A stretch of 64,000 nucleotides of DNA from Candidatus Obscuribacteraceae bacterium (GTDB taxonomy: Bacteria; Cyanobacteriota; Vampirovibrionia; Obscuribacterales; Obscuribacteraceae): positions 64,001-128,000 of the forward strand of contig JBGASG010000009.1 of assembly GCA_044229845.1 (NCBI GenBank), read 5' to 3'. Under the pieces are notes generated by a model. The model worked only from the letters and a program-made list of their open reading frames with translations. It was not told the DNA's origin and did no database searches. Positions 7,299 to 23,019 of the stretch are shown piece by piece. The translations under genes were made by a program, and so were the position numbers. How positions within the stretch are numbered: position 1 is the first letter of the stretch; every line of letters begins with the position of its first letter.

Positions 7299-7455
7299 GG
7301 TGAAGCCTCGCCGCTTGAGAACCGGGTGGGCTGATTAAATTTGCACGTCGCTGATTGTAACTGGTACGTGAGCCGCACACGCTGGTAGGCTTGGGTCTTC
7401 ATCAATGACGCGACAAATCGAAGTTTTTCGCGTGTGTCGGGGAATAGAGAAACTG

Positions 7456-8712
7456 ATGGCTCTGGAGTCGACGAATCGCACCATGACTAATTTTTCCAAC
7501 AAAACGAATGGCAGACCGGGAGACGGTCGTCAAGGGAATGATCCAATGTCTCCGCCAGATGATGAGCCGGGCAATGGCGTCAAAACTCGGGCGGATGTGC
7601 CGGACTCTAGCAAGCACGAAGCTGACCAACTCGACCCCGCCACCAGAGCGCAGGCTATGGCGGCCGCTGCTGCTGCTGAGATTGCCGTACAGGGCGCAGC
7701 CATCGCCGACAATAAGAAACAGAAGGGCGGCGACCGCAAAAGTGCGACCAGAGATCCTGGTGATGCCAGGCTCAGTGATGGTGCCAGGCTTGCCGACAAC
7801 AATCGCGCCATCGCTGATAGTGACGATTCGTCAGCCAACAAGAAAGTTTCGATCAAGCGCTCTCTGCATAAACTGACAGAGGGAGACCTGCACCTGCTCA
7901 ACAGTTCACGCGGGTTGAAGGAGATGCTGCGCGAGAGAAACATCAAAGTCAAAGATGTCCTCGATGCCCTCAGGTATGAAGATGAGCTGGTGCTGCTGCA
8001 AATCGAACTGGTGAAGTTGCAACGCTGGCTCCAGCAACAGAACAAGCGTGTGATCATCTTATTTGAGGGACGCGACGCGGCGGGCAAGGGTGGAACGATT
8101 CGTCGCTTTACCGAGCACCTCAATCCCCGTTCGTTGCGAGTGGTGGCATTGCCGAAACCGACAGAAGAAGAGAGAGGTCAATGGTACTTCCAGCGATACT
8201 CTAAACAGTTGCCCAATGCTGGTGAAATCGTCTTTTTCGACCGCAGCTGGTACAACCGGGCGGTGGTTGAGCCGGTGATGAATTTCTCTACCAAGGTGGA
8301 ATACGATCGCTTCATGCAACAGGTGCCCGAATACGAGCACATGTTATATGAGGATGGTATCACGATCATCAAATTCTGGTTCTCCATTTCCAAAGATGAG
8401 CAGCAGCGTCGCTTCGAATCGCGAGCGCAAAATCCTTTGAAGCAGTGGAAGCTGAGCCCGATTGACAAAGAGGCGCAGCAACTCTGGGACAGGTACACGC
8501 AATTCAAGGAACAGATGTTCAGTCGCACGCACACATCTTTTGCGCCATGGATCATCGTGCGCGCCAACAATAAAAAGCGCGCCCGGCTGGAAAGCATCCG
8601 CTACGTGCTCAGCCTTTTCGATTATGCCGAAAAGGACAAGGGTAAAGTCAATCTTTTCCCGGACCCGAACGTTGTAGAAAGATTCAATCGTAACATCATC
8701 AAGCTCGACTGA
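7456..8712 (+). CDS. ppk2: Polyphosphate kinase 2 with long low-complexity N-terminal extension (start uncertain)
   Basis: FEGRDAAGKGGTI, QWYFQRY, FDRSWYNR, WKLSPID. Confidence 0.92.
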   Translation: MALESTNRTMTNFSNKTNGRPGDGRQGNDPMSPPDDEPGNGVKTRADVPDSSKHEADQLDPATRAQAMAAAAAAEIAVQGAAIADNKKQKGGDRKSATRDPGDARLSDGARLADNNRAIADSDDSSANKKVSIKRSLHKLTEGDLHLLNSSRGLKEMLRERNIKVKDVLDALRYEDELVLLQIELVKLQRWLQQQNKRVIILFEGRDAAGKGGTIRRFTEHLNPRSLRVVALPKPTEEERGQWYFQRYSKQLPNAGEIVFFDRSWYNRAVVEPVMNFSTKVEYDRFMQQVPEYEHMLYEDGITIIKFWFSISKDEQQRRFESRAQNPLKQWKLSPIDKEAQQLWDRYTQFKEQMFSRTHTSFAPWIIVRANNKKRARLESIRYVLSLFDYAEKDKGKVNLFPDPNVVERFNRNIIKLD

Positions 8713-8728
8713 CGAATAACCCGCGCCG

Positions 8729-11700
8729 TTACTCCTCAATAGGTGCCAGCAGATATTTCAGATCGCGCTCTGTAAAGTGATTGGTCAGGGCACCAGTAGT
8801 AGTGCCCTTGTCATAAATGCCATCGGCAATCAGGCGTTTCTCTTCCTGGCGCTTAAGCATCTTTTCTTCGACAGTACCGGTGGTGATTAACCGATAGACG
8901 AACACCGGCTTATTCTGTCCGATGCGATGAGCGCGGTCGGTTGCCTGTTCTTCGACCGCCGGATTCCACCAGGGATCGTAGTGGATGACGGTATCGGCAG
9001 CAGTCAAGTTAAGACCTGTGCCACCGGCTTTGAGGCTGATCAAGAAAACGGGCGCTTTGCCGGCTTGAAACTGTTTCACTGGTGTTTTGCGGTCGGCAGT
9101 GCTGCCTCGCAGTTCCAGATATTTGATCTCCCTTGTTATCAGCTCCTCGGCAATCAAGTCGAGCATGCTGGTGAACTGAGAAAAGACGAGTACTCGTCGC
9201 CCTTCATCAACCAGTTGGGTGAGCATCTCCATCAGAACGGATAACTTTGCAGATTCGCCGACAGCTCGCGCTTCTTCGAGCTTTAACAGCCGCGGATCAC
9301 AGCACACCTGACGCAGCCGCATGAGTGCTTTCAGGATGACAATCTGACTGCGATTGATGCCTTTCTCTTCGACAACTTCGAGGACCCGTTTGTGCATGGC
9401 CAGTCGCACGGTTTCATACAGATCGCGCTGTCCGCCCTCCAGGGTAATGTTGCGGTGGATAACCGTCTTTGTGGGCAATTCTTCGCCGACTTCTGATTTG
9501 GTGCGGCGCAACAGGAACGGACGAATGCGAGCGGCGAGAAACGCCCGCATGTACGGGTCATTGAATTTTTCGATCGGCGTGCGAAAGACTCTGGTGAAGA
9601 TTTCGTGTGTGCTCAACAGCCCAGGCATCAGAAATGCGAATTGCGACCAGAGCTCGCCCAGATGATTCTGAACCGGAGTGCCGGTCATGCAGATGCGATG
9701 ATTCGCTTTCAGGCGCCGGCAGACGTCGGCAACTTGTGTCTGCCTGTTTTTGATCATCTGCGCTTCGTCCAGAATCACCATATGCCACTCGCGCAAAGTG
9801 AGCAGTGATGCATCGCGTTGCAATAATGGATAAGAGGTGAGAACAATATCTACGTCGTCGAGTTTGCTCTGGCGAGTAAATCGATCGTAATCTCGCAAAC
9901 ACACAACTCGCAGGTGCGGCACCATGCGTTGGGCTTCCTCAATCCAGTTGGGCAAAACACTGGTCGGGCAAACAACCAGGCAGGGGCGCTGCAGATGGTT
10001 GCTCTCATACTCCATCTGGATGTGCGCCAGTGCTTCGACAGTCTTGCCCAGCCCCATGTCGTCTGCAAGTATCCCGCCGATGTTATGCGAAGCGATAAAT
10101 TGCAGCCAGGCGACACCTTGTTTCTGGTAATCGCGAAGGGTGACGCCGAACTCATTCGGTGCGGCATGTGTTGGCCAATCGCTTCCTGCCTTCAACAATG
10201 AAGCGGCCAGAGCACGCAGGCGGTCACCGCCCTGGAAGGCGATCGGTTGTTCAGCTCCGAGCAACTGCACCAGTTGTCCGGCGCTAATCGGCATGCGTCC
10301 TTGGCGATTTACAGAACTTTCATCGAAAACTTCGATCAAAGTTTTGATCAGCGATTTGACGCGTGGAAACGGCAAAGAAAGTTTGGCGCCATCAGCCATG
10401 GTGACATAGAATCTGCCGCCCTGATTCATCGCCTCCAGAAAATTGTCGTCGATGACATCCATCGGTTCAAATCCGGCGCGGGCGTCGGACATATTATACG
10501 GAATGCTGCGCACCGCCTGCATAAGCAGCGGCAGCAACGAAACTTTTTCACCCCGGACATTGATGCCCAGGTCGACGCTGAACCATCCTTCTTCCTCGAC
10601 AATATCTCCTTGCCAGTCGTCATCATCTGGCATAACGACACGATCGTGAAAGGACTTGTCATAAATAATGTCCCAACCAAGCTTTTCGAGCCGCGGAATT
10701 TCCAGGGCAACAAAATCAGTCAGTTGACGCAACTGCGGCAGTATCAAGCAGAGCCCGTCATTTACGCGCGGGAAGTTGGCCATGGGCAGCTGCAATTCTT
10801 CGGTGAGCATCGAACTGAGCTCTCGCTCTGCTTTCAGGTTGCGGCGGTAAACGACGGTGCGCGAGGCACCGTTGATGGTGACATGGTTGCCGCTGTCTGT
10901 GGGATTGCAGCGCTTGTTGCCGTACTTCACCCAGTGAAAGGCGTAAGCTGCATCTTTCTGCACGCCGTTGTCGAATTTTGTGAGAAACAATACCGGCGTC
11001 GGCACCGCTTCTCTATGTTCGATGACGACCTGTTCTGACGGCAGCGGAATTTCCAGATCGGGCAATCGCTTTTGCAACAAATCGCGGGTGTATTTGGCTT
11101 GTTCTACATCCAGGCGCGGTCCAAACAAGATAGGTTCAACTAGATCTGCAGGGAAAGGCAATGTCAATCGCCCGGCGCAGCCGGTTTTTTCATCCACATA
11201 CCAGGGGCTGGGCGCCAGCAAGACTTGCGCTTCGTGCGTGGTGACGGTGGTGCGCTGGCGACCTTGCTCGTCGACTGCCCACACCAGTTCGCCCGGGCGG
11301 GCGTCACCCAGTGTGAGCGGCAACCCGTCTTTGGTGCGCCAGAAACAGCGCCCGGTCTTAATGACCGAGTTCAGCAAGAGGTCGATTAGTTCGGGTTCAG
11401 CTGTTTCAAATGAATAGTCCAGCCAGTATCCGGAGCGCATGCTGCCCAGAAGTGCGCCAATCATGCGGTCGGCGGCATCGAGAAAGCCGGCGCGACCGGT
11501 GGTCAAATCGTAGCGTTCTTCGCGTCCATATCCGCCGGCTTTCAGCTTGCTGGCGGCGATGGTTTCCAGTCTTAGATACGGTTTTTCGGCGGAGCCGGTG
11601 GTCACCAGATAGAGCAAAGTCTTGCTGTCTTTGAGCTTCTCTTTGCGGGTTACCGTCTCGTTGATCTTACAGAGGTCGGAAACCCATCCATCTATAAGAG

Positions 11701-12160
11701 GATGCACTTTGGCGGGTTGCTCTTGATCCGGAGGCGCGATTTCGCTGGGGGCAATTTCCTCGATGTCATCTTCGTCTTCGCCGGTGCGCTCGCGCAGCAC
11801 GTGATACAGCAGTGCTGCGCCGTGTTTGCAGGTGGTGCCGACCGGGCATTCGCAGCGGCAGTCGACGATGGAATTGGGGCGCCCGCCAGGCTTAATTTGC
11901 ACATAGGTGTCGTACTTGGTCGTGCCCTGCACGAGCCCGGATATGGCGCTCCAGTCGTCATTTATCGCGTATTCGAGAACTCTGAAGCCACGCGCGTAAT
12001 CAAAACCACGCTTCGCTGAGGCGACGCCGAAAAAATCTTCAATCTGCCAATCGGCGAAGGGGGAGCACTTCCGACACTGGCAACGACCATCCGGACACTC
12101 CAGATTGCGGGAGCGATTCTTCGGGGAATGGCTATTTCTTGGAGGTTTTATCTTTGCCAT
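8729..12160 (-). CDS. SWIM zinc finger + SNF2 family helicase/ATPase
   Basis: CECP...CKH SWIM motif; LADDMGLGKT, LDEAQ, TGTPVQN, QATDRAHRIGQ. Confidence 0.93.
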   Translation of the reverse strand: MAKIKPPRNSHSPKNRSRNLECPDGRCQCRKCSPFADWQIEDFFGVASAKRGFDYARGFRVLEYAINDDWSAISGLVQGTTKYDTYVQIKPGGRPNSIVDCRCECPVGTTCKHGAALLYHVLRERTGEDEDDIEEIAPSEIAPPDQEQPAKVHPLIDGWVSDLCKINETVTRKEKLKDSKTLLYLVTTGSAEKPYLRLETIAASKLKAGGYGREERYDLTTGRAGFLDAADRMIGALLGSMRSGYWLDYSFETAEPELIDLLLNSVIKTGRCFWRTKDGLPLTLGDARPGELVWAVDEQGRQRTTVTTHEAQVLLAPSPWYVDEKTGCAGRLTLPFPADLVEPILFGPRLDVEQAKYTRDLLQKRLPDLEIPLPSEQVVIEHREAVPTPVLFLTKFDNGVQKDAAYAFHWVKYGNKRCNPTDSGNHVTINGASRTVVYRRNLKAERELSSMLTEELQLPMANFPRVNDGLCLILPQLRQLTDFVALEIPRLEKLGWDIIYDKSFHDRVVMPDDDDWQGDIVEEEGWFSVDLGINVRGEKVSLLPLLMQAVRSIPYNMSDARAGFEPMDVIDDNFLEAMNQGGRFYVTMADGAKLSLPFPRVKSLIKTLIEVFDESSVNRQGRMPISAGQLVQLLGAEQPIAFQGGDRLRALAASLLKAGSDWPTHAAPNEFGVTLRDYQKQGVAWLQFIASHNIGGILADDMGLGKTVEALAHIQMEYESNHLQRPCLVVCPTSVLPNWIEEAQRMVPHLRVVCLRDYDRFTRQSKLDDVDIVLTSYPLLQRDASLLTLREWHMVILDEAQMIKNRQTQVADVCRRLKANHRICMTGTPVQNHLGELWSQFAFLMPGLLSTHEIFTRVFRTPIEKFNDPYMRAFLAARIRPFLLRRTKSEVGEELPTKTVIHRNITLEGGQRDLYETVRLAMHKRVLEVVEEKGINRSQIVILKALMRLRQVCCDPRLLKLEEARAVGESAKLSVLMEMLTQLVDEGRRVLVFSQFTSMLDLIAEELITREIKYLELRGSTADRKTPVKQFQAGKAPVFLISLKAGGTGLNLTAADTVIHYDPWWNPAVEEQATDRAHRIGQNKPVFVYRLITTGTVEEKMLKRQEEKRLIADGIYDKGTTTGALTNHFTERDLKYLLAPIEE

Positions 12161-12408: not shown

Positions 12409-12441
12409 AAGCCCGCCCATAAAGCGGGTCTTTTTGTGTTT
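12409..12441 (+). terminator. Attenuator terminator of the his leader
   Basis: GCCCGC-ccataaa-GCGGGT stem followed by CTTTTTGTGTTT. Upstream AGACAG/CTGTCT stem, and GCGG (12362) can pair with CCGC of the terminator 5' arm. Confidence 0.8.
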
Positions 12442-12457
12442 CCACAGGAATTTATCC

Positions 12458-13387
12458 ATGTCTAGCAATCAGAAATTGACGAATTCGCCTTCCGCACAAG
12501 AGCAGGCATCAGCCGACAACGGCGCCGCGGCGCTGCGACTGACCATTCCCACCGGACGCATTCAGGAGAAAGTGCTCGGGTTGCTGGATGCAATCGGCGT
12601 CAAAATGGCCAAGGACGGCAGATCTTACAAGCCGACGTGTTCTGAGAACGGCATTGAAATAAAGATGCTGAAAGCTCAGAACATCCCCAATCTGGTGGCG
12701 CTCGGACGACATGATTGCGGGTTTTCCGGCTACGACTGGATCACTGAGCAGCGCGCCGATGTGGTCGAACTTCTCGACCTGGAATTCGACCCCGTGCGCA
12801 TAGTTGCTGCTGTGCCCGAATATCTGGCGGAGAACGACCTGTATAAAACGATCGATCGCCAACTGGTTGTGGCCTCGGAATATCGGCAGCTTTCCACCGA
12901 TTTCATCGCTCGCAATAAACTGAACGCCGTGTTCTTGCAGACTTTCGGTGCCACCGAAGCGTTGCCGCCGGAAGATGCGGATATCATCGTCGACAATACC
13001 GCCACCGGTACCACGCTGCGTCACAACCGCCTGGTAGAAATCGAAGTGTTGATGCGGTCGACCACCAGGTTCATTTGCAATCGCGAGGCTTACGAGAACA
13101 AAGAAAAACGCCGCAAGCTCGATGAGCTGACGATGCTCATGCAGGCTTCTTTGCGCGCGCGCGACAAGGTCTTGCTGGAAATGAACGTCGCTCGTGAAGA
13201 CTTCGAGCGTCTGGTGGGAGACTTGCCCTGTATGCGGGCACCGACAATTTCCGAACTGTACAACGGTGACGGCTACGCCGTCAAAATCGCCGTTTCGTCC
13301 AGAGATGTTCCGACTCTGATACCAAAACTGGTGGCACTGGGGGCGCGGGACATTCTCGAATACAAACTGCAGAAGATTGTGATTTAA
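12458..13387 (+). CDS. hisG: ATP phosphoribosyltransferase, long form
   Basis: P.GRI, DCGFSGYDW, GATE..PP..ADIIVD...TGTTLRHNRL; C-terminal regulatory domain (PTISEL, GARDILEY). Confidence 0.93.
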   Translation: MSSNQKLTNSPSAQEQASADNGAAALRLTIPTGRIQEKVLGLLDAIGVKMAKDGRSYKPTCSENGIEIKMLKAQNIPNLVALGRHDCGFSGYDWITEQRADVVELLDLEFDPVRIVAAVPEYLAENDLYKTIDRQLVVASEYRQLSTDFIARNKLNAVFLQTFGATEALPPEDADIIVDNTATGTTLRHNRLVEIEVLMRSTTRFICNREAYENKEKRRKLDELTMLMQASLRARDKVLLEMNVAREDFERLVGDLPCMRAPTISELYNGDGYAVKIAVSSRDVPTLIPKLVALGARDILEYKLQKIVI

Positions 13388-13408: not shown

Positions 13409-14047
13409 ATGAATATTTCGCCCGCGATACCATCCAGAGCACAAGCTGCCGCTTGCGAAGTCGACCTGGTCGATGTAGGCGGTGGCAACATCGGCAGCGT
13501 GCGCCGCTGCCTGCACAGGCTGGGTATCACCTATCGCGATGTCGGTGCCGATAATCTACCGGGCGGCTCGCGTCCATTGATCTTGCCTGGGGTCGGTGCA
13601 TTCGGCACCGTTATGGACAGCTTGCGAAGAAACGGTTTGGACGAAAGCATAAAAAATTTGGTGGCCAAGGGTACACCACTGCTGGGTGTTTGCGTCGGAA
13701 TGCAGGTTCTGTTCGACAGCAGCGAAGAAGCACCGGGCGTGCCGGGACTGTCGCTGGTGCCAGGGAAAGTGGTGCGCTTCGTGGCTGACAAAGTGCCGCA
13801 GATCGGGTGGAATCATATCGATGCGAAGCAGTCAGGCTGGGAAGGCGGCTATGTCTATTTTGTCAACTCTTTCTATGCACAACCCGAAAACGATAACGTG
13901 GTGCTATACCAGGCGCAGTATGGCGACACGGAATTCTGTGCCGCGCTGCGGACTGGAAACATAACCGCCTTTCAGTTTCATCCTGAAAAAAGTAGTGCCT
14001 TTGGTGCCAGTTTGCTTGCGAGGTGGATAGCCAGTGTCACTCTGTAA
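13409..14047 (+). CDS. hisH: Imidazole glycerol phosphate synthase glutaminase subunit
   Basis: [34 protein letters not shown]. Confidence 0.95.
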
Positions 14048-14798
14048 GCGCATCATTCCCTGCCTTGACGTAGCCAACGGCATGACCGTGAAAGGTGTGA
14101 AGTTCACCAATCTGCGAACCATCGGCGACCCCGTCGAACTGGGCTTGATCTACGAAGAACAAGGCGCCGACGAACTGACGTTTCTCGACATATCTGCATC
14201 GTCCGAAGAGCGAGCGACCGTCGTCGAGCTGGTCGAGCGCGTCGCCGACAATCTCTCGATTCCATTTACAGTCGGCGGCGGCATCACCACAGCCGCTGAT
14301 GCGAAAAAACTTTTGAGCAGTGGTGCCGACAAGGTTTCGATCAACACTGCGGCGGTGCAGCGGCCGGAACTGATCGGCGAGATTTCCTCTGCCTGGGGCT
14401 CGCAGTGCTGCGTGGTGGCAATCGATGCACGGGCTGCGGCGTCTCCCGGCACGTGGGAAGTACTGATCAAGGGCGGTCGCGTGGCGACCGGACGTGATGC
14501 TTTCCAGTGGGCTCAGGAATGTGTTGAGCGCGGCGCCGGCGAGATACTTCTGACGTCGTGGGATCGTGACGGCACCTTATCTGGTTTCGACCTGGAGATG
14601 GTGCGCACCTTCGCGCGCAATCTGCCGGTGCCGGTGATTGCGTCGGGCGGTGCTCGCGACCCGGAGAGTTTCGTCGACGTGTTCAAGGAAGCCAGCGCTG
14701 ATGCCGCCCTGGCAGCAAGTATTTTTCACGATGGCACCTACACCATCGCTCAGGTCAAAGAGCGTTTGCGCGCAGCAGGAGTACCAGCAAGGCTATGA
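14034..14798 (+). CDS. hisF: Imidazole glycerol phosphate synthase cyclase subunit
   Basis: [42 protein letters not shown]. Confidence 0.96.
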
Positions 14799-16036
14799 TT
14801 GTTCCCAGCATCGATATTATCGGCGGAAAAGCGGTGCAACTTCGCCAGGGCAAGGAGTTTGTCCTGGAGAGCGAGCGCGATCCGGTAGACCTGGCCCGTG
14901 AATTCAATCGATACGGTGAAGTGGCGGTGATCGATCTTGATTCCGCCATGGGCAAAGGCAACAATCGCGAATTGATTGAGCGCATTTGCAAAGTTGCCGA
15001 TGTCCGAGTCGGTGGCGGCATCCGCGATGTAGAAACGGGACGCGCATTGCTGCGTGCCGGGGCCAAGTCACTGATTGTCGGAACCAAAGCTACTCCCGAG
15101 TTTCTCAGCCAGTTTCCTGCAGACCGCATTATTGTGGCGCTCGATCATGTCAACGAAGAAGTTGTCGATAAGGGATGGACCAATTCTACCGGTGAATCGA
15201 TTTGGGATCGGGCCGGCAGGCTGGAACCATATTGCAGTGGGTTTCTGGTCACGTTTGTGGAAGCAGAGGGTGGATTGGGTGGACTGCCCGCCTCAGCAGC
15301 AGCAAGCCTCCTGGAGAAACTGAAAAGGCATGTCACCGTTGCCGGTGGCATCGCTTCCACGACGGAAGTAGCCGATATCTCGGCGCTGGGTGCAGACGTG
15401 CAGGTGGGCATGGCCCTATATAAAGGATTAGTCGATCCGGTCGAGGCGGTCGTGCAGAGTGTCAACTTCGACACCAACGGCACCGGTGTCGTGCCCACGG
15501 TCGTTCAGGACATGAACGGACAGGTTTTGATGCTGGCATATAGCTCACCGGAGTCGTTGCGGCGAGCACTTAAAGAGGGCAAGGGCATCTATTACAGCCG
15601 TTCTCGCCAGGAGATATGGGAGAAGGGATTGACTTCGGGTGCGACGCAGCAGCTGGTTTCTTGCCGGGTAGATTGCGATCGCGACAGTCTCCTGTTCCGC
15701 ATCGAGCAAACCGAGGGCGCCTGCCACCGGGGTTCCTACAGCTGCTTCGGGCAAGCAACGGCTGCCAGGCAGTTCTCCGTCGGACAGTTGTTCAGCATTC
15801 TGCAGCAGCGGAAGCAGGAGATGCCGGAAGGTTCTTATTCGGCAACGCTATTTAAAGACCGGCGTAAGTTGCTGAAGAAACTGATGGAAGAAGCGCACGA
15901 GGTCTGCACCTTCGAGTCTACCGAAAATTTGCGCTGGGAGATTGCCGATTTGATCTACTTCGCCAGTTTGCTGGCAGTGGATGAAGGTGTGTCGTGGGCT
16001 GACATCGAATGCGAACTGGGAGGTCGTGCCAAGTGA
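14795..16036 (+). CDS. hisA-hisIE: Fusion of HisA-like TIM barrel, phosphoribosyl-AMP cyclohydrolase (HisI) and phosphoribosyl-ATP pyrophosphatase (HisE)
   Basis: N-term [30 protein letters not shown]; His[28 protein letters not shown]; HisE SY...[16 protein letters not shown]. Confidence 0.88.
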
Positions 16037-17307
16037 CGCAAATGAGCAGATCTGTATTCGAACGAGTCGAGGGCGAGTCGGATGTCTCCGATATCGCCAA
16101 GCGAGTGGCTCAGATTTCCGTCTCTGCCATCAAGCAAATGCCGGTGCTGGCCGCCAGGGTCGGCGGGTGCGTATCGCTGGGGCAGGGCATCCCGTCTTTG
16201 AATACGCCGGAGTTTATTCGCCGCGCCGTCATCGAAGAGCTGCAAAATCCGTCGACAGCGATCGGCAAGTATTCTATTCAGCCAGGTTTGCCGGAGTTGA
16301 AACAAGAAATCGCCCGCGACTTGAAGCGAACTCGCGGTGTGGCGAATGTGGACCACGAGAAGGAGATATTTGTCAGTTGTGGTGGCATGGAGGCGCTCGC
16401 CGCCGGCATCGCTACCATTGTGGAACGTGACGATGAGGTGATTTTGCCGTCGCCCACCTACGCTTCCCATATTGAACAAGTGCTCTTTGCTGAAGGCGTA
16501 CCGCGATTCGTACCTCTGGTTGAAGATCAGGGATGGAAACTGGACATTGAGGCAATCAGAAAAGCAGTCTCGAAGAAAACCAAAGCGATCATTCTCTGCA
16601 ATCCGGTCAACCCGACAGGCACCGTATTCAGTGAGAGCGAATTGAACGAAGTCGCCAAGATCGTGTTGGAGAACGATTTGTTTCTTATCCTCGATGAAGC
16701 CTACGATTTCCTGGTCTACGACGGTCTGCCGTTCTACAGTTTGATGTCGCGCGTCGATCTGAAGGAGAATGTCATCGCTGTCTGCAGTTTCTCCAAGCGG
16801 TATTGCATGACCGGCTGGCGAGTCGGTTTCATGTACGCTCCAGAGCGCATTATTCGTCAGGTCTTGAAAGTGCATGATGCGTTTGCCATCTGTGCTCCGA
16901 CGATATCGCAGTTCGCTGCTCTGGCGGCGCTACGTGCCACCAATGGCGTCGACGGCGAAGGAGACCGCAGCGTTCAGCAACTTGTCGATGCGCTCGGGCG
17001 CAGACGAGACCTGGTGTGTTCGCGACTGGAACGGCTGACCGAAATCTTTTCCTATGTCAAACCGGTGGGCGGATACTACGTCTTCCCCCGGTTCAATGCG
17101 GCGGTGAAGGCAGCTTCCTCCGATTTAGAGTCTTCCATTGATTTCACGCTGCGCATATTGAATGAAGCAAAAGTGATCACCATTCCGGGGAGTGCATTTG
17201 GACCCACCGGCGAGAATCATATACGAATGTCTTTCGGTGCCGACGAAGCCGAGCTGACTGAAGCCTTTGACCGACTCGATACTTACTTTGCAGGGAGAAA
17301 ATCATGA
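16033..17307 (+). CDS. PLP-dependent class I/II aminotransferase (AspC/PatA-like), candidate histidinol-phosphate aminotransferase by position (start GTG 16033 or ATG 16042)
   Basis: SLGQGIP, CNPVNPTG, DEAY, SFSKRYCMTGWRVG; 4-nt overlaps with both neighbours. Confidence 0.85.
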   Translation: MTQMSRSVFERVEGESDVSDIAKRVAQISVSAIKQMPVLAARVGGCVSLGQGIPSLNTPEFIRRAVIEELQNPSTAIGKYSIQPGLPELKQEIARDLKRTRGVANVDHEKEIFVSCGGMEALAAGIATIVERDDEVILPSPTYASHIEQVLFAEGVPRFVPLVEDQGWKLDIEAIRKAVSKKTKAIILCNPVNPTGTVFSESELNEVAKIVLENDLFLILDEAYDFLVYDGLPFYSLMSRVDLKENVIAVCSFSKRYCMTGWRVGFMYAPERIIRQVLKVHDAFAICAPTISQFAALAALRATNGVDGEGDRSVQQLVDALGRRRDLVCSRLERLTEIFSYVKPVGGYYVFPRFNAAVKAASSDLESSIDFTLRILNEAKVITIPGSAFGPTGENHIRMSFGADEAELTEAFDRLDTYFAGRKS

Positions 17308-18626
17308 TTCGCACGTTCCAACTGAATTCCATGTCGAAACAGGACCGGGATAAGGTCATGAAACGCGCACATGAGGATATCGACAGCGTCAAGCCGAAGG
17401 TCGAGCAGATTATTCAAGCCGTGCGCAGCGAAGGCGATGCGGCGCTGGTGCGTTTCACGAAAGAATGGGATGACCCTGAGTACACCGCAGACCGCCTGGT
17501 GGTGACCGAAGCCGATATTGACGAAGCCTATAAGAACACCAGCAAAGAAACGCTGGAACGCATCCGCGAACAAATCTCCCTGTCGAAGCGATTTCATGAA
17601 CTGCAGCGACAGCAAGTCCCGGAATGGGAAAACGAGATGGAGAATGGCATCGTTGTCGGCGAGAAGTGGACTCCACTGTCCGATGTCGGGCTGTATGTGC
17701 CTGGTGGAAAAAATCCGTTTCCGACTGTGCAGCAAATTCTGGCGGTGGCAGCCAAGGCTGCGGGCTGCCCGCGCATAGTTTCGTGCATCTCGCCGCGAGG
17801 CAAGGGCTATGAGGTGTTGATTGCGGCGCGGGAGTGCGGCGTCACGGAGATATATCGGGTTGGTGGAGCACAAGCGATTGCCGCTCTTGCCTATGGAACA
17901 GAGACTATCAAGCCGGTATTGCTGATTGCCGGACCGGGAAATCCGTTTGTCACCGCTGCCAAGATTCTTTGTCAGTCGAAGGTGTCCATCGATATGCCGG
18001 CTGGACCAAGTGAGGCGATTGTGCTCGCCGATGGCACCACGCCGGAAGGACTGGATTTGCCGACCAAGGCGACTTATTGTGCGGCCGACTTGCTGGCGCG
18101 TGCGGAGCACGGACCGGATTCCGCCGGTGTGCTGCTCACTGATTCCGCGGAGCTTGCCGAGCTGACCGAGAAGGAAATCGAGAAGCAGTACAAAACTCTG
18201 TCGAGGCAAGACTATATTAAGAAGGCACTGGAGACCTACAGCGCAATTATTGTGGTGCCCTCCATGAAGGAGGCGGTTGACTTCACCAACGAGTACGCGC
18301 CTGAACACCTCGAAATACTAACGGAGGATCCCGATGCCACATTGAAGGGCATTGAGAATGCCGGGTCGGCTTTCCTTGGCTATTACAATCCGGTTGCTAC
18401 CGGTGACTACGCTACCGGCATCAACCACGTGCTGCCGTCGTGCGGATGGGCGAGGCAGACATCTCCGGTTGGTGTGTGGACCTTCATGAAGCGTGTGCAA
18501 TACTCAACCGTCAGCAAGAGTGGACTGGACAGGCTGCGACCGATTGTTCAGACAATTGCCACCGTGGAAGGATTGGATGCGCACCGTCGCAGCGTTGAAG
18601 TGCGCTTTGAGAAACAGAATGTCTGA
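17304..18626 (+). CDS. hisD: Histidinol dehydrogenase (divergent)
   Basis: GLYVPGG, VGGAQAIAALAYGTE, GPGN, IDMPAGPSE, APEHL, GDY, NHVLP, EGLDAH. Confidence 0.92.
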   Translation: MIRTFQLNSMSKQDRDKVMKRAHEDIDSVKPKVEQIIQAVRSEGDAALVRFTKEWDDPEYTADRLVVTEADIDEAYKNTSKETLERIREQISLSKRFHELQRQQVPEWENEMENGIVVGEKWTPLSDVGLYVPGGKNPFPTVQQILAVAAKAAGCPRIVSCISPRGKGYEVLIAARECGVTEIYRVGGAQAIAALAYGTETIKPVLLIAGPGNPFVTAAKILCQSKVSIDMPAGPSEAIVLADGTTPEGLDLPTKATYCAADLLARAEHGPDSAGVLLTDSAELAELTEKEIEKQYKTLSRQDYIKKALETYSAIIVVPSMKEAVDFTNEYAPEHLEILTEDPDATLKGIENAGSAFLGYYNPVATGDYATGINHVLPSCGWARQTSPVGVWTFMKRVQYSTVSKSGLDRLRPIVQTIATVEGLDAHRRSVEVRFEKQNV

Positions 18627-19923
18627 GACTGATGTGGATGATGCGGCTCAGCTGCGTTTGATCGATATTCAGAAACTGCAGTTTGCCGATCGTGTCGGCG
18701 CGGAGCAGGCTTTGCTGGCATTCTTGAAAAAGAGTGAGGATGCCGCAATCACTAGGGTTGAGTTGCGTCCAAAACCGGAATCGCTCAATTCGATCAATGG
18801 CTTTGTCACCTTCGGCGAGAGCGAGCGTTATTTCTTCAAGATGCACGTCGAGGAAAACGAGCGTCTCAGTGAATATTACAACGCAAAGACGCTGGCTGAT
18901 GCCGGGTATCCCGTGGTGACGGCGAAGCAAATCTCGCATCGCCCTGGCAAGCAACTTGTGCTTTACGAGATCATTGAGTTCGCTACTTTGTTTGATGTGG
19001 CGAAGGAGGCGGAGGACGAGTTGCTGCAGGCGCGTGACGTGTCGAACTTTGATGCCATCGTTGCCGCACAAAATCAGTTGGACGCGATTACAAGCTCGAT
19101 ATACGCAAAGACTCTCGCGCAGACTCCGGAAACCGAAGATCTGCCCGCGCCGATTCATCAATTGTTTTCACATCGTCTGGCAGAAGATGGACGGCTGCGA
19201 TTGTTTTATCGTGGTAAGACCATGAAGACAGAATCTGGCACCCCGATCGCTTTTGATGAACTGGCAAACATGCATTGGGTGATCAATGGGGTTCGCCACG
19301 GAGAGACTTTGAACGAGATCATCGAGCGGGCGCAAATTCAGCTGGCACCATCGGCGGGACCATCGGTGATCGGACACGGCGATGCACACAATGGAAATGT
19401 ATTCTTCGATCCCGTCGAAAATAGTTTGTTGATGTTTGATCCAGCGTTCGCAGGCCGACATCACCCGCTGTTGGATCTCACCAAACCGCTCTTCCATAAC
19501 GTCTTCGCTCGCTGGATGTATTACCCGTCCGAGGTTGACAAAGAATTTAGCCTCGCTATGGTGATGGACAAGGGTGTAATCGAGATTACTCACAATTTCG
19601 AGATCTCAGGACTGCGCAAGGCATTCCTGGAATCAAAGCTGAAATACGTCCTGCGTCCGACGCTCAAGCTGCTGCACGAGCAGGGGATGCTGCGCGGCGA
19701 CTGGCAAACTTATTTGAGATCATCGCTGTTTTGCTGTCCGTTTTTGACGGTCAACCATTTCGCTCCTTATAAGGCTGACGGAACTCTGTCCGAGCGCTAC
19801 TCCTTCTGGGTGCGCATGCTCGGGTTGTCCATGTCGGTGGAGTTGGGTTCGGGATACCGTGAGGGTAGCAACGGCATGACCGACCTGCTTGACCGTATCC
19901 TCGATTTTCCGTTTGCTGGATAA
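18619..19923 (+). CDS. Unknown protein with APH/choline-kinase-like motifs, translationally coupled to hisD
   Basis: ATG 18619 overlaps the hisD stop by 8 nt. SLNSING, YFFKMH, IGHGDAHNGNVF (Brenner HxDxxxxN), MFDPAFAG. Confidence 0.75.
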   Translation: MSETDVDDAAQLRLIDIQKLQFADRVGAEQALLAFLKKSEDAAITRVELRPKPESLNSINGFVTFGESERYFFKMHVEENERLSEYYNAKTLADAGYPVVTAKQISHRPGKQLVLYEIIEFATLFDVAKEAEDELLQARDVSNFDAIVAAQNQLDAITSSIYAKTLAQTPETEDLPAPIHQLFSHRLAEDGRLRLFYRGKTMKTESGTPIAFDELANMHWVINGVRHGETLNEIIERAQIQLAPSAGPSVIGHGDAHNGNVFFDPVENSLLMFDPAFAGRHHPLLDLTKPLFHNVFARWMYYPSEVDKEFSLAMVMDKGVIEITHNFEISGLRKAFLESKLKYVLRPTLKLLHEQGMLRGDWQTYLRSSLFCCPFLTVNHFAPYKADGTLSERYSFWVRMLGLSMSVELGSGYREGSNGMTDLLDRILDFPFAG

Positions 19924-20012
19924 GGTTTGTCCCTGCATGTCTGGACAACCGGCAGTCGCTGGTCGAAAATGTGCGTCTGACGCATTAGGCGTTGTCAAGC
20001 TTTGATTGCCAA

Positions 20013-21290
20013 ATGGAACATCGCCCAACCCTAAATCTGCTATTGCTCGATGTGGACGGAGTCCTTGTGGAACCGCTCGCTTATCGCCAGTGCATCGTCA
20101 AGACGCTGGAGATTTTAGGCAGGCAAGTGGGGCTCCGCAATCTCGAAGATGTGATGCCGACGGAATCCGACATCGCGCATATGGAAGCCTGTGGCATTCA
20201 TGATGTCTGGGATATGACCAATATCCTGTTCAGCGCGATTTTGGAGCGGATCACATTCCATCTGACCGGCACTGAGGCTCACGAGAAGAGCTTGAGCGAC
20301 CGCCTGGAGGGACTGGAGACTATCAACCAGCGCCTGACTGTTTTTCAAAAAACGCCGCTGGTTATCCAGAAACCCGGCTACACAGAAATAGCCACCGAGT
20401 TAATGAAGCGATTGCCGGCACACCCGCCTGATATCGCGTTGCAGATGGTCGAGGCGCAGATTCGCAAACAGTTTGCTGCCAGAGCCTTGATTTATTCCCT
20501 GTTGGAAATTCACAAAGCTTTCCTGATGGGAACGCGTTCTGTGTATGAGAGCTATGGCACAGGGCTTTTTCAAAACATTCTCCTTGGCAAGGATGAGTTT
20601 GAGAAGACCTACAATCTGCACAGCGAGTACAACGAGGAGCCACTGCTTCGCGTTGCTGACAAAGCGCTGATTTCTCAGCAGTCGGTTGCCATGCTGCAAC
20701 TTTTGAATGAACGCCCTGATTGCCGCGCGGCGATCTATACGGCACGTCCGAGTTTGCCCCCACCGTCGGAAGAAGCGACCGAAGGCTTCTCTCCGGAAGC
20801 GGAGATTGCGCTGGATCTGTGTGGTATGAAGGGCTTTCCCCTGGTGGGGATGGGCATGATGCAATGGCTTGCTGCCAGAACTAATTGCCGGACGGAAGAC
20901 CTGACGAAACCAAATACCACGCAAGCGCTGGCGGCATTGGCGGCGGCGATCTATCAGCAAAACGATATCGATTTATTGGAGGCGGCGTACAGAGTCGACC
21001 GCGAGGGCGAAAATCCGCACGAGCACCTGCTTGCGAATCTGGCTGAGACACCGATTCGGATCTATGTATTCGAGGACACAGTGTCAGGGATCAATCCGAT
21101 GCTGAAGGTTGCCCAGAAACTGCAGGGCGATGGATTTTCTGTGAGTGTTACCCCGATGGGTATCGCACAGCAGAAGAGCAAGCACCAGGCACTATCCATG
21201 GTGACCAAGCATGTGTTTGGCAATGTGGATTTTGCATTGCGGTTTGCCTCTCACGATATGAATACTGCAGCGAGCAGCGGGGCTCTCTAG
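20013..21290 (+). CDS. HAD-superfamily hydrolase with large cap, candidate histidinol-phosphatase
   Basis: LLLDVDGV (motif I), YTAR (motif II), TKP (motif III), VFEDTVSG (motif IV); last co-oriented gene after the his genes. Confidence 0.7.
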
Positions 21291-22027
21291 GATAGGGACT
21301 GCCCGGTTTTGGGCTTGGGCTTAGGCATTTCGTCCCAAGTGCGACCTTCGAGCAGTCGACCGGCGGCTTTCTTATTGCGACCGCCCCACTGTTTGAAGAA
21401 GAAAGCGACGTTTTGTTCTTTGCACTGATCGCGAATGGTGGTTACCCAATCCTTATCTATGGGGCGGGAACGATGGCCGGATTCGCCACCGACAATCACC
21501 CAGTCGATGCCGGTGAGATCGAGGTTGTCTCCGAGCGGACCAATTAATGGCTCGATGGAGAGAAACTTGGTGTGAGCCCGCGTACGTCGCAAATGATCGA
21601 TGCGGTATTTGTAGTCGGCGTTTTCTACGCTTACCCCCTGCCAGATATGGGGGCACCAGGGCAGGATGGGATCAATCTCTTCGAGACGTTCCGCGCGTTT
21701 CGTGAGGATTTGGAACGTGTGCCATTTTGCTTGCTTCATCACCTGGAAGATTTTCAGAATAAATTCTTGCGGCACATCCTTGTGGTAGAGGTCGCTCATC
21801 GAGTTCACGAAGATGCGCTTGGGCTTCCGCCAGGAAAGTGGTAGCTCCAGGCGATTGGGCCACATTTTTAGATCGAATCCTTGTTCATAAGGATGGTCTG
21901 GAACTCCACGAAAGCGTTCCGCGAAAGTCTCCGCATAGCAGTTTGCGCAACCCGGACTGATCTTGTGGCACCCGGTGATTGGGTTCCACGTGGCGTCGGT
22001 CCATTCAATGCTGGAGTTATCACTCAT
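21287..22027 (-). CDS. DUF5131 (phage Gp37/Gp68) family radical-SAM-like protein
   Basis: [61 protein letters not shown]. Confidence 0.9.
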
Positions 22028-22404: not shown

Positions 22405-23019
22405 ATGGAGGATTTGCATATGGCAATTAAACAAATCAGGGAGCATTTCAAAAACCTTGGTCCGCTAGAGATATTTTGCACGCGGGATTTGCTGCAATAC
22501 GGAAAGCGTACGGCAGTTGATACCGCCACCTTCAGACTAGTGAAGCAAAAGGAGATAAAGAGACTCGCTAGTGGAGTGTTTATAAAATACAACGATTCTG
22601 GACTACGCCCGTCGGATGAGGAGATCGCGATGGCAAAAGCGAAAGCATTTGATCGTCAGATAGTGGAGATTAGCCGAGCTCTAGCATTGGAGCTGGGAGT
22701 ACCTATCAATGAAAATGCTGATGCGTATTTTGCTACGAATGGGCGGACAACGCAGTTCATGATTGAAAAAAAAAGACTCGTTCAATTCGTTGGGGTCGCA
22801 CCAAGAAAGGTGGAACTCGGAAGAACCAGAGTTGGAACGGAATTGAGGACGTTCTGGAAGATTGGGAAACGCTCTCTCCCCTCCGTAAGAGTTCGGCTCC
22901 TCGCAAATAACTGGTCTTGGCGCGATGCGAACGAATGCGCGGGGAGGATCAGGCAATTGCCTCAGTGGCTCTCTGAGATGCTGGGTCTTCCTCGCGCCGC
23001 GCTGCACGGCGCGGCGTAG
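22405..23019 (+). CDS. DUF6088 / AbiEi-antitoxin-like wHTH protein
   Basis: IFCTRDLL..G.R.AVD....RLV....I.RLA.GVF; visibly AT-richer than its neighbours. Confidence 0.65.
   Translation: MEDLHMAIKQIREHFKNLGPLEIFCTRDLLQYGKRTAVDTATFRLVKQKEIKRLASGVFIKYNDSGLRPSDEEIAMAKAKAFDRQIVEISRALALELGVPINENADAYFATNGRTTQFMIEKKRLVQFVGVAPRKVELGRTRVGTELRTFWKIGKRSLPSVRVRLLANNWSWRDANECAGRIRQLPQWLSEMLGLPRAALHGAA

Follow-up and report, generated by a model that had tools for sequence, protein, structure and literature searches.

A kinase-fold protein as a probable stand-in for imidazoleglycerol-phosphate dehydratase in histidine operons of Obscuribacteraceae and other bacteria

The histidine operon and its kinase-fold gene

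The window analyzed here, a 64,000-nucleotide stretch of contig JBGASG010000009.1 (positions 64,001 to 128,000; assembly GCA_044229845.1) from Candidatus Obscuribacteraceae bacterium, carries a histidine operon without hisB, in which the seventh gene, designated KIN (18619..19923, + strand), encodes a 434-aa protein of the APH/choline-kinase fold that we predict to be an ATP-dependent dehydratase standing in for imidazoleglycerol-phosphate dehydratase (IGPD). IGPD itself needs no ATP, and E. coli hisB mutants exist. The operon, all on the forward strand, begins with hisG (12434..13387), encoding the ATP phosphoribosyltransferase of the canonical upper pathway, hisH (13409..14047), hisF (14034..14798) and a hisA-hisI-hisE fusion (14795..16036); imidazoleglycerol phosphate (IGP), the product of HisFH, is the entry point of the route proposed below. 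These genes are followed by a class I aminotransferase of the aspartate/aromatic type in the place expected for HisC (16009..17307), a histidinol-dehydrogenase homologue termed HisD* (17304..18626), KIN, and a HAD-family phosphatase (19992..21290, likely start ATG 20013), with consecutive spacings through KIN of 21, -14, -4, -28, -4 and -8 nt. The phosphatase, which is fused to KIN in other genomes, scored 16.9 bits against TIGR01548 (curated cut-off 140.2), shows HAD motifs I (DVDGV) and IV (EDT) in its sequence, and is predicted to dephosphorylate IGP. The KIN frame is free of stops and its ATG lies within the hisD stop region at 18619-18626 (ATGTCTGA), with the hisD TGA at 18624-18626, so that the two genes overlap by 8 nt, as the preliminary description of this DNA had noted. 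An alternative upstream GTG start at 18493 was rejected, since it falls in hisD and the alignment of close homologues begins at 18619. No lanthipeptide-type lyase gene was found in the operon, all eight genes being accounted for by histidine enzymes, the aminotransferase, KIN and the HAD protein. Outside it lie a PPK2 gene (7405-8712, +) and a gene for an SNF2 helicase with a SWIM finger (8729-12160, -) on the upstream side, and on the other a DUF5131 gene (21287-22027, -) that converges on the HAD stop, with a DUF6088 gene (22405-23019, +) beyond.

The only Pfam match of KIN is APH (PF01636, 31.3 bits, cut-off 23.2); there was no match to the IGPD family PF00475 and the NCBIfam scan was empty, which places the protein outside the IGPD family by sequence. 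Its AlphaFold model (pLDDT 92.6, pTM 0.90) has the two-lobed, protein-kinase-like fold of small-molecule kinases, in agreement with what had been read from its motifs: structural matches included PsiK (Z 16.9, root-mean-square deviation 6.9 over 322 aligned residues), methylthioribose kinase (Z 15.6), homoserine kinase (Z 14.4) and lexapeptide LxmKY (Z 14.1), and the best Foldseek hit had an E-value of 6e-7. No solved structure is related to KIN by sequence, the identity to any listed structure being 16% or less. The FFK (K74), HGDAHNGN (253-260) and FDP (D274) motifs are present as previously claimed, and a profile search across 78 diverse relatives revealed R186, R192, H253, D255, H257, N260 and K289 to be invariant and K74, E78, E85, D274 and H293 to be at least 90% conserved. 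KIN thereby carries the Brenner motif HxDxxxxN (H253, D255, H257, N260) with a Mg-binding Asp (D274), together with the N-lobe Lys/Glu pair formed by K74 and E78/E85, in which the partner Glu is assigned from spacing. We accordingly distinguish catalytic kinase residues (K74, E85, D255, H257, N260, D274) from family-specific ones (R186, R192, K289, H293). Conservation was even higher in 160 fetched KIN loci, partly as a consequence of their having been retrieved by these same motifs.

KIN is a conserved, genuine gene: of 8000 candidates, 1202 were related to it at E ≤ 0.001. Its close homologues bear names that assign the genome to the Obscuribacterales, and homologues occur in the cultured Scytonema sp. 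NUACC26 and Pseudanabaena sp. lw0831 and on Sinorhizobium meliloti pSymA. In public annotation these proteins are called 'hypothetical', 'phosphotransferase' or 'aminoglycoside phosphotransferase', with HisD* labelled histidinol dehydrogenase. A function as an antibiotic-resistance kinase was rejected, the shared fold being its only support and the genetic context being histidine metabolism. Viral contigs gave 72 pattern matches, and no relative is encoded by any of them. Distant proteins of 650-940 aa (P0238, P0243-P0245, P0248, P0253, P0254, P0257 and P0266) combine a C-terminal domain like KIN with an N-terminal portion resembling nucleotidyltransferases (atlas score 0.91, a lead only; Pfam was negative in the two scanned). 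One genome with a HAD-KIN fusion carries a second, stand-alone KIN as well (L358, G1063:C8), and no his gene was detected within 20 kb of this copy.

KIN in place of IGPD across genomes

IGPD was detected in 1 of 71 KIN genomes tested from Obscuribacterales, Cyanobacteria and Chloroflexota, the other 70 lacking it; the carriers are related to one another and not independent, and for this reason no P value is claimed for the exclusion. The preliminary description had proposed KIN as a stand-in for the IGP dehydratase, to be abandoned if most carriers also encoded IGPD, and its core idea is supported by this distribution. The window's own genome (88% complete) contains no IGPD detectable with the PF00475 hidden Markov model. 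A divergent IGPD was rejected because three IGPD queries gave no tblastn match at E < 0.05, and an assembly gap because the contig, 199 kb long, continues on both sides of the operon, the same is seen in 11 related genomes, and hisI is present in 50/50 other KIN genomes. In a sample of 201 genomes of the class, KIN occurred in seven, none with IGPD. Within the own family (n = 56), 32 genomes had IGPD, seven had KIN and 17 had neither, and all of these 17 also lacked hisD; the 38 hisD-positive genomes divided into 31 with IGPD and seven with KIN, with no genome having both or neither, and one genome (G114) had IGPD and no hisD match. Five additional family members chosen by HisD type all carried KIN and no IGPD. 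In another family of the class (f6), IGPD was found in 0/57 genomes and KIN in none; these are likely histidine auxotrophs.

Beyond the order, a scan of genome contigs yielded at least 562 KIN relatives, from which 80 were retained, mostly Anaerolineae and oxygenic Cyanobacteria, and 50 of the 71 non-Obscuribacterales loci were tested for IGPD, hisI and HisD. IGPD was present in 1/50, the unlinked control hisI in 50/50 and HisD in 49/50. As background, IGPD was found in all 260 sampled cyanobacteria, one of them with KIN, and in 126/180 Anaerolineae, where the four KIN carriers had none. A Chloroflexota sample contained KIN in 33/396 genomes (a tally that includes the unpublished genome G964, on which no other result depends), and five new carriers tested were all without IGPD. 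The single KIN genome with IGPD, G238, has the KIN cassette alongside IGPD, an intact HisD and a native HisC (L309); in G259 (L310) IGPD is gone and HisD decayed, with native HisC retained, and G224 and G262 have the cassette aminotransferase alone. These genomes are possibly stages of displacement.

The gene neighborhoods followed the same pattern. hisD lay directly upstream of KIN in the same orientation in 71/80 genome loci (gap ≤ 571 nt), a linkage beyond chance, and for three loci without adjacent hisD a HisD* was retrieved from elsewhere in the same genome. The full cyanobacterial cassette reads hisD*-KIN-HAD-aminotransferase. KIN and HAD are fused in both orders (KIN-HAD in P0122; HAD-KIN in P0130, P0133, P0142, P0155 and P0203), one member of the fusion-protein cluster being named Ktedonobacteraceae. 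In 13 genomes of a new Chloroflexota group (14 regions), HAD and KIN were fused in 12 and adjacent in one, directly preceding hisH-hisA-hisF-hisI, with hisG ahead of them in 11. The hisB slot is defined by the textbook order of his operons, and the order hisG-[HAD-KIN]-hisH-hisA-hisF-hisI puts HAD-KIN in that slot. In E. coli, HisB likewise joins a phosphatase and IGPD in one protein (PMC9798254). A UDP-sulfoquinovose synthase-like gene stood immediately upstream of hisD*-KIN in 35 loci. Among the IGPD-type his operons used for comparison, that of G078 has a HisC-HAD fusion (L027:4615-6303), and long HisC open reading frames occur in L028 as well and a HisG-HisC fusion in L031.

It is thus very probable that KIN supplies or enables the missing dehydration. 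We also considered that KIN might be a kinase for salvage or side products, with IGPD replaced by an unlinked, unrecognized gene or histidine imported. A proteobacterial KIN clade in catabolic-looking plasmid clusters (107 records), whose host genera presumably have a normal hisB, would suit this explanation, as would the one cyanobacterium with both KIN and IGPD; it is nonetheless very unlikely, given that 38/38 hisD-positive family genomes are split between IGPD and KIN, that photoautotrophs without IGPD occur only where KIN is present, and that HAD-KIN fusions occupy the hisB slot. A pure salvage role, or the making of a histidine derivative, both raised in the preliminary description, likewise fails to account for the absence of IGPD from KIN-bearing photoautotrophs.

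Altered companion enzymes and a re-ordered lower pathway

The zinc ligands of HisD are a Gln, two His and an Asp (PMC11382572). In the HisD* of the window the Gln259 position (E. coli numbering) is occupied by Arg266 (codon CGT, 18099..18101, + strand), the other ligands being retained and the catalytic pair Glu326/His327 being kept as Glu334/His335. This pair was invariant and the zinc site altered in all 112 KIN-linked HisD rows examined: the own clade had Gln259Arg in 15/15, and the remaining 97/97 (59 genome loci, 35 metagenome loci and 3 plasmids, with open reading frames of ≤ 330 aa excluded) combined Gln259Glu, Asp360Asn and His367Ala, with Glu326, His327, His262, Glu414 and His419 invariant. 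IGPD-linked HisDs of this class kept Gln in 25/25, including those of two genomes of the own family, G045 and G169, whose HisDs are 69% and 65% identical to that of the window and which carry HisC and IGPD in place of the aminotransferase, KIN and this HAD protein. In the tree, these two Gln-type HisDs (L016, L017) are nested in the Arg clade (support 0.86-0.94), and on this placement may be reversions to the canonical route.

A complementary pattern was observed in the native HisD. HisD searches in 50 KIN genomes gave a single match in 20, and 20 second copies were fetched, 15 of them native cyanobacterial and five from Anaerolineae. Native HisD was decayed in 14/14 IGPD-less KIN cyanobacteria: of nine key residues, between one and seven were gone in each, and all nine were intact in the IGPD-retaining G238 and in 30/30 controls. 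The decayed frames (L218-L231) are still full-length (about 430-444 aa), so that cyanobacterial HisD either decays slowly or has a second role that is not enzymatic. Mapped on the native HisD tree of cyanobacteria, the displacement needs four changes, of which well-supported branches force only one; several independent displacements are therefore no more than suggested. Four of the five Anaerolineae second copies (L233-L236) are HpsN-like dehydrogenases with an HpsN-like motif. The HpsN motif G-R-Y-A/S-H (His126) is missing from the HisD* of the window, which has GKNPF, as it is from other HisD* (GKGAF or GKGSF). HisD* seems adapted away from histidinol.

The aminotransferases differ from canonical HisC in a parallel manner. 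That of the window scored 122.2 bits against the HisC model TIGR01141, under the curated cut-off of 276.55, and its closest solved structures (1gd9, 1dju) are aspartate/aromatic aminotransferases; HisC over the cut-off was found in 0/5 KIN Anaerolineae vs 5/5 IGPD Anaerolineae. The cyanobacterial cassette aminotransferase scores as HisC, with Tyr20 replaced by Lys in 13/13, Arg322 by Gln or Ala in 12/12 full-length sequences and Arg335 retained, and Tyr and Arg were kept in 13/13 IGPD-linked HisC controls. In M. tuberculosis HisC, the substrate phosphate is held by two C-terminal arginines and Tyr25 contacts the substrate (PMC4703992), residues that we equate with E. coli Arg322, Arg335 and Tyr20.

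These observations bear on the simplest exchange, in which KIN would make imidazole-acetol phosphate from IGP and ATP and the aminotransferase, HAD and HisD* would follow in the usual order. Such a one-for-one swap for IGPD, the reaction put forward in the preliminary description, would be in keeping with the mutual exclusion with IGPD and the occupation of the hisB slot by a HAD-KIN fusion, which resemble E. coli HisB (PMC9798254), with a possible role of the invariant R186, R192 and K289 in holding the IGP phosphate, and with the HisC-family genes that both the KIN Obscuribacterales and the cyanobacterial cassette retain. However, it leaves the alteration of HisD in 112/112 KIN-linked rows, with sisters keeping Gln, unexplained, gives no reason why native HisD and not HisD* decayed in 14/14 cases, and accounts neither for the absence of HisC in 5/5 KIN Anaerolineae nor for KIN in catabolic clusters without an annotated phosphatase. 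We therefore regard it as improbable; the stand-in part of that proposal is supported, and the specific reaction followed by the usual later steps fits less well. Because the HisD* zinc site is altered, canonical HisD is decayed, and HisC is missing or losing its phosphate-binding Arg, a re-ordered route is preferred, which likely runs through imidazole-pyruvate.

A second, apparently catabolic setting of KIN was found in Proteobacteria. A total of 107 plasmid records, most of them from Sinorhizobium and Rhizobium, carry more distant KINs (about 31-42% identity), which form a clade apart from the biosynthetic clades (Obscuribacterales, Cyanobacteria, Anaerolineae) in the KIN tree; their hosts presumably keep IGPD. 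In three records that were read, hisD* and KIN were accompanied by an ABC transporter, a Zn-dehydrogenase and an SDR, in two of them also by an alpha-hydroxy-acid oxidase, and in the S. meliloti record by hutC and a hisC-like gene; none of the three has an annotated phosphatase. Across 80 metagenome loci of this clade we counted hisD* in 43, SDR in 30, Zn-dehydrogenase in 29, a hutC-like regulator in 17, alpha-hydroxy-acid oxidase in 12, hutH in 11, hutU in 6 and HAD in 4, while hisG, hisF and IGPD were found in 0/80 (40 of these loci being shorter than 9 kb). The clusters look as if an unphosphorylated imidazole polyol were taken up and turned into histidine for Hut degradation. Literature on the S. 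meliloti cluster, searched by locus and gene tags, offered regulation data only, and passages of PMC8844928 name no substrate. In the hpsNOP-suyAB system, HpsN, a HisD homologue, turns a diol into an alpha-hydroxy acid; the enantiomers are interconverted by two dehydrogenases, and a lyase yields pyruvate (PMC11382572). Because the proteobacterial KIN clusters parallel this system, they suggest, by analogy, unphosphorylated substrates and alpha-hydroxy-acid products. In five loci (L115, L116, L117, L121 and L126) hisD is missing, and the neighbors of KIN are a divergent SDR, a convergent class III aminotransferase and a member of the enolase superfamily, which in L121 scored as cis-3-hydroxyproline dehydratase; the KINs of these loci may be a subfamily with another substrate. 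L159, L163, L168 and L172 hold KIN-hisD*-HAD cassettes inside the otherwise catabolic clade, which suggests a further switch to biosynthesis.

Our best model, held tentatively and at a little short of an even chance, is that KIN is an ATP-dependent kinase-fold dehydratase in a lower pathway re-ordered as HAD, HisD*, KIN and aminotransferase, which appears to be the most economical order for the enzymes of the cassette. The HAD phosphatase would take the 1-phosphate off IGP to give imidazole-glycerol; HisD* with NAD+ would oxidize C1 twice to give imidazole-glycerate, the kind of reaction that its homologue HpsN carries out on the diol DHPS; KIN with ATP/Mg would phosphorylate the 3-OH of imidazole-glycerate and eliminate phosphate to give imidazole-pyruvate; and the aspartate/aromatic-type (keto-acid) aminotransferase would convert this to histidine. 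The invariant Arg, Lys and His of KIN could hold the carboxylate and drive the elimination after 3-O-phosphorylation, and KIN would be unable to reverse the phosphatase step because C1 is already oxidized in the proposed order.

The phosphorylation-elimination step could be divided differently. KIN might be a plain 3-O-kinase, with HisD* oxidizing imidazole-glycerol 3-phosphate to the aldehyde, phosphate being beta-eliminated in or near HisD*, and imidazole-pyruvate following; the zinc-site Arg gained in the own clade, or the bulk of His367 lost in the others, could then serve to hold the phosphate, and the KIN-HisD* linkage is tight, with pairwise identities of the two proteins correlating (Spearman 0.72 over 105 loci, of which related ones are not independent). 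Class V lanthipeptide APH-like kinases similarly phosphorylate only, leaving elimination to a partner (PMC9486802). This arrangement is unlikely, since KIN would have to choose the 3-OH over the primary 1-OH to avoid a futile cycle with HAD, and the alpha-hydroxy-acid oxidase in 12/80 proteobacterial-type loci suggests that HisD* releases alpha-hydroxy acids. Dehydration might alternatively come first, KIN turning IGP or imidazole-glycerol into the acetol, with removal of the phosphate, oxidation of imidazole-acetol to imidazole-pyruvate by HisD*, and transamination. The loss of HisC and the altered HisD agree with such a sequence, in which HAD-KIN fusions of both orders would link consecutive steps; it is nevertheless quite unlikely, as imidazole-acetol shares the C3 methylene with histidinol, so that remodelling on the scale of His367Ala would be less needed, and the SDR, Zn-dehydrogenase and alpha-hydroxy-acid oxidase partners indicate C2-hydroxy intermediates.

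Several observations weigh against the re-ordered route through imidazole-glycerate. HpsN oxidizes a diol yet retains Gln and Asp, and the changes in HisD* are for that reason neither required for a hydroxyl substrate nor able to name one, and the decay of native HisD could be partly due to redundancy. The cassette HAD was not found in 5/5 KIN Anaerolineae with the single query used, and hisD is absent from some proteobacterial KIN stretches (present in 43/80, and in 31/40 loci of at least 9 kb). A canonical-looking HisC stands beside HisD* and KIN in L071, a KIN locus labelled Chloroflexota/actinobacterial, and an unlinked HisC-family gene with intact Tyr20, Arg322 and Arg335, which could transaminate imidazole-acetol phosphate, is present in 5/5 KIN Obscuribacterales tested. 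As the latter gene groups with orthologues from 5/5 relatives without hisD or IGPD, it is probably no marker of the histidine pathway and may be a housekeeping aromatic aminotransferase. The lack of HisC in the own genome was accordingly downgraded as support, since the closest relative and four others have this unlinked gene.

Relation to known systems and significance

Compared with IGPD (HisB-C/HIS3/HISN5, PF00475), a Mn2+-dependent 24-mer (PMC10978614), KIN is mutually exclusive with it and shares the pathway slot, the operon position and the HAD fusion seen in E. coli HisB (PMC9798254), whereas sequence and fold are unrelated and KIN has an ATP-kinase fold, probably acting on a dephosphorylated, oxidized intermediate. 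KIN resembles the APH/choline-kinase-like kinases (PF01636; methylthioribose kinase, PsiK, homoserine kinase type II) in fold and in K74, E85, D255, N260 and D274, and differs from them in its own invariant set R186, R192, H253, K289 and H293 and in a predicted net dehydration without release of a phospho-product. In lanthipeptide biosynthesis, an APH-like kinase activates a hydroxyl for elimination, and in LanM the elimination takes place in the kinase active site (PMC9486802). The proposed phosphorylation-elimination by KIN would be akin to class V LanK/LanY (LxmKY, Z 14.1) and class II LanM; unlike these dehydratases, which act on peptide Ser/Thr and in class V with a separate lyase, KIN would have a primary metabolite as its substrate. 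The HpsN-HpsO-HpsP-SuyAB system of Cupriavidus pinatubonensis (PMC11382572) has its gene logic in common with the proteobacterial KIN clusters, but HisD* lacks the His126 motif and has other zinc-site changes, the eliminating enzyme has a kinase fold instead of being SuyAB, and the neighbors hutC, hutH, hutU, hisG and hisF indicate imidazoles.

According to a 2023 paper, the fold and chemistry of histidine enzymes are conserved across life, with histidinol-phosphate phosphatase as the sole exception (PMC9798254). The locus described here is at least a second exception to this enzyme conservation, and the last four steps probably follow another route in it. Non-homologous displacement and the kinase fold were already known, and what would be new is their occurrence in a pathway with one described exception. 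In the full-text literature searched, which included few subscription papers and no supplements, neither a kinase that takes the place of IGPD nor a route of this type was described, and neither 'imidazoleglycerate' nor 'imidazole glycerate' occurred in the papers matched by the search.

Judged from comparative genomics, KIN is real and widespread, its part as the substitute for IGPD is well supported, and it is probably the marker of a re-ordered lower histidine pathway. Considered jointly, the data make it reasonably probable that a mobile four-gene cassette of HAD, HisD*, KIN and a keto-acid aminotransferase constitutes a second, hitherto unrecognized lower half of histidine biosynthesis, leading from IGP through imidazole-glycerate and imidazole-pyruvate to histidine by way of an ATP-dependent kinase-fold dehydratase, without IGPD, imidazole-acetol phosphate, histidinol phosphate or histidinol, that it repeatedly displaced the canonical enzymes in Cyanobacteriota and Chloroflexota, and that its core is common to catabolic imidazole-polyol scavenging in plant-associated Proteobacteria. 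If true, this would close the gap for photoautotrophic cyanobacteria and Chloroflexota that have all other tested his genes and no IGPD, and would correct the annotations of HisD* as histidinol dehydrogenase and of KIN as 'hypothetical' or 'aminoglycoside phosphotransferase'. Primary metabolism would gain a kinase-fold dehydratase, and histidine would be made independently of IGPD and possibly of manganese.

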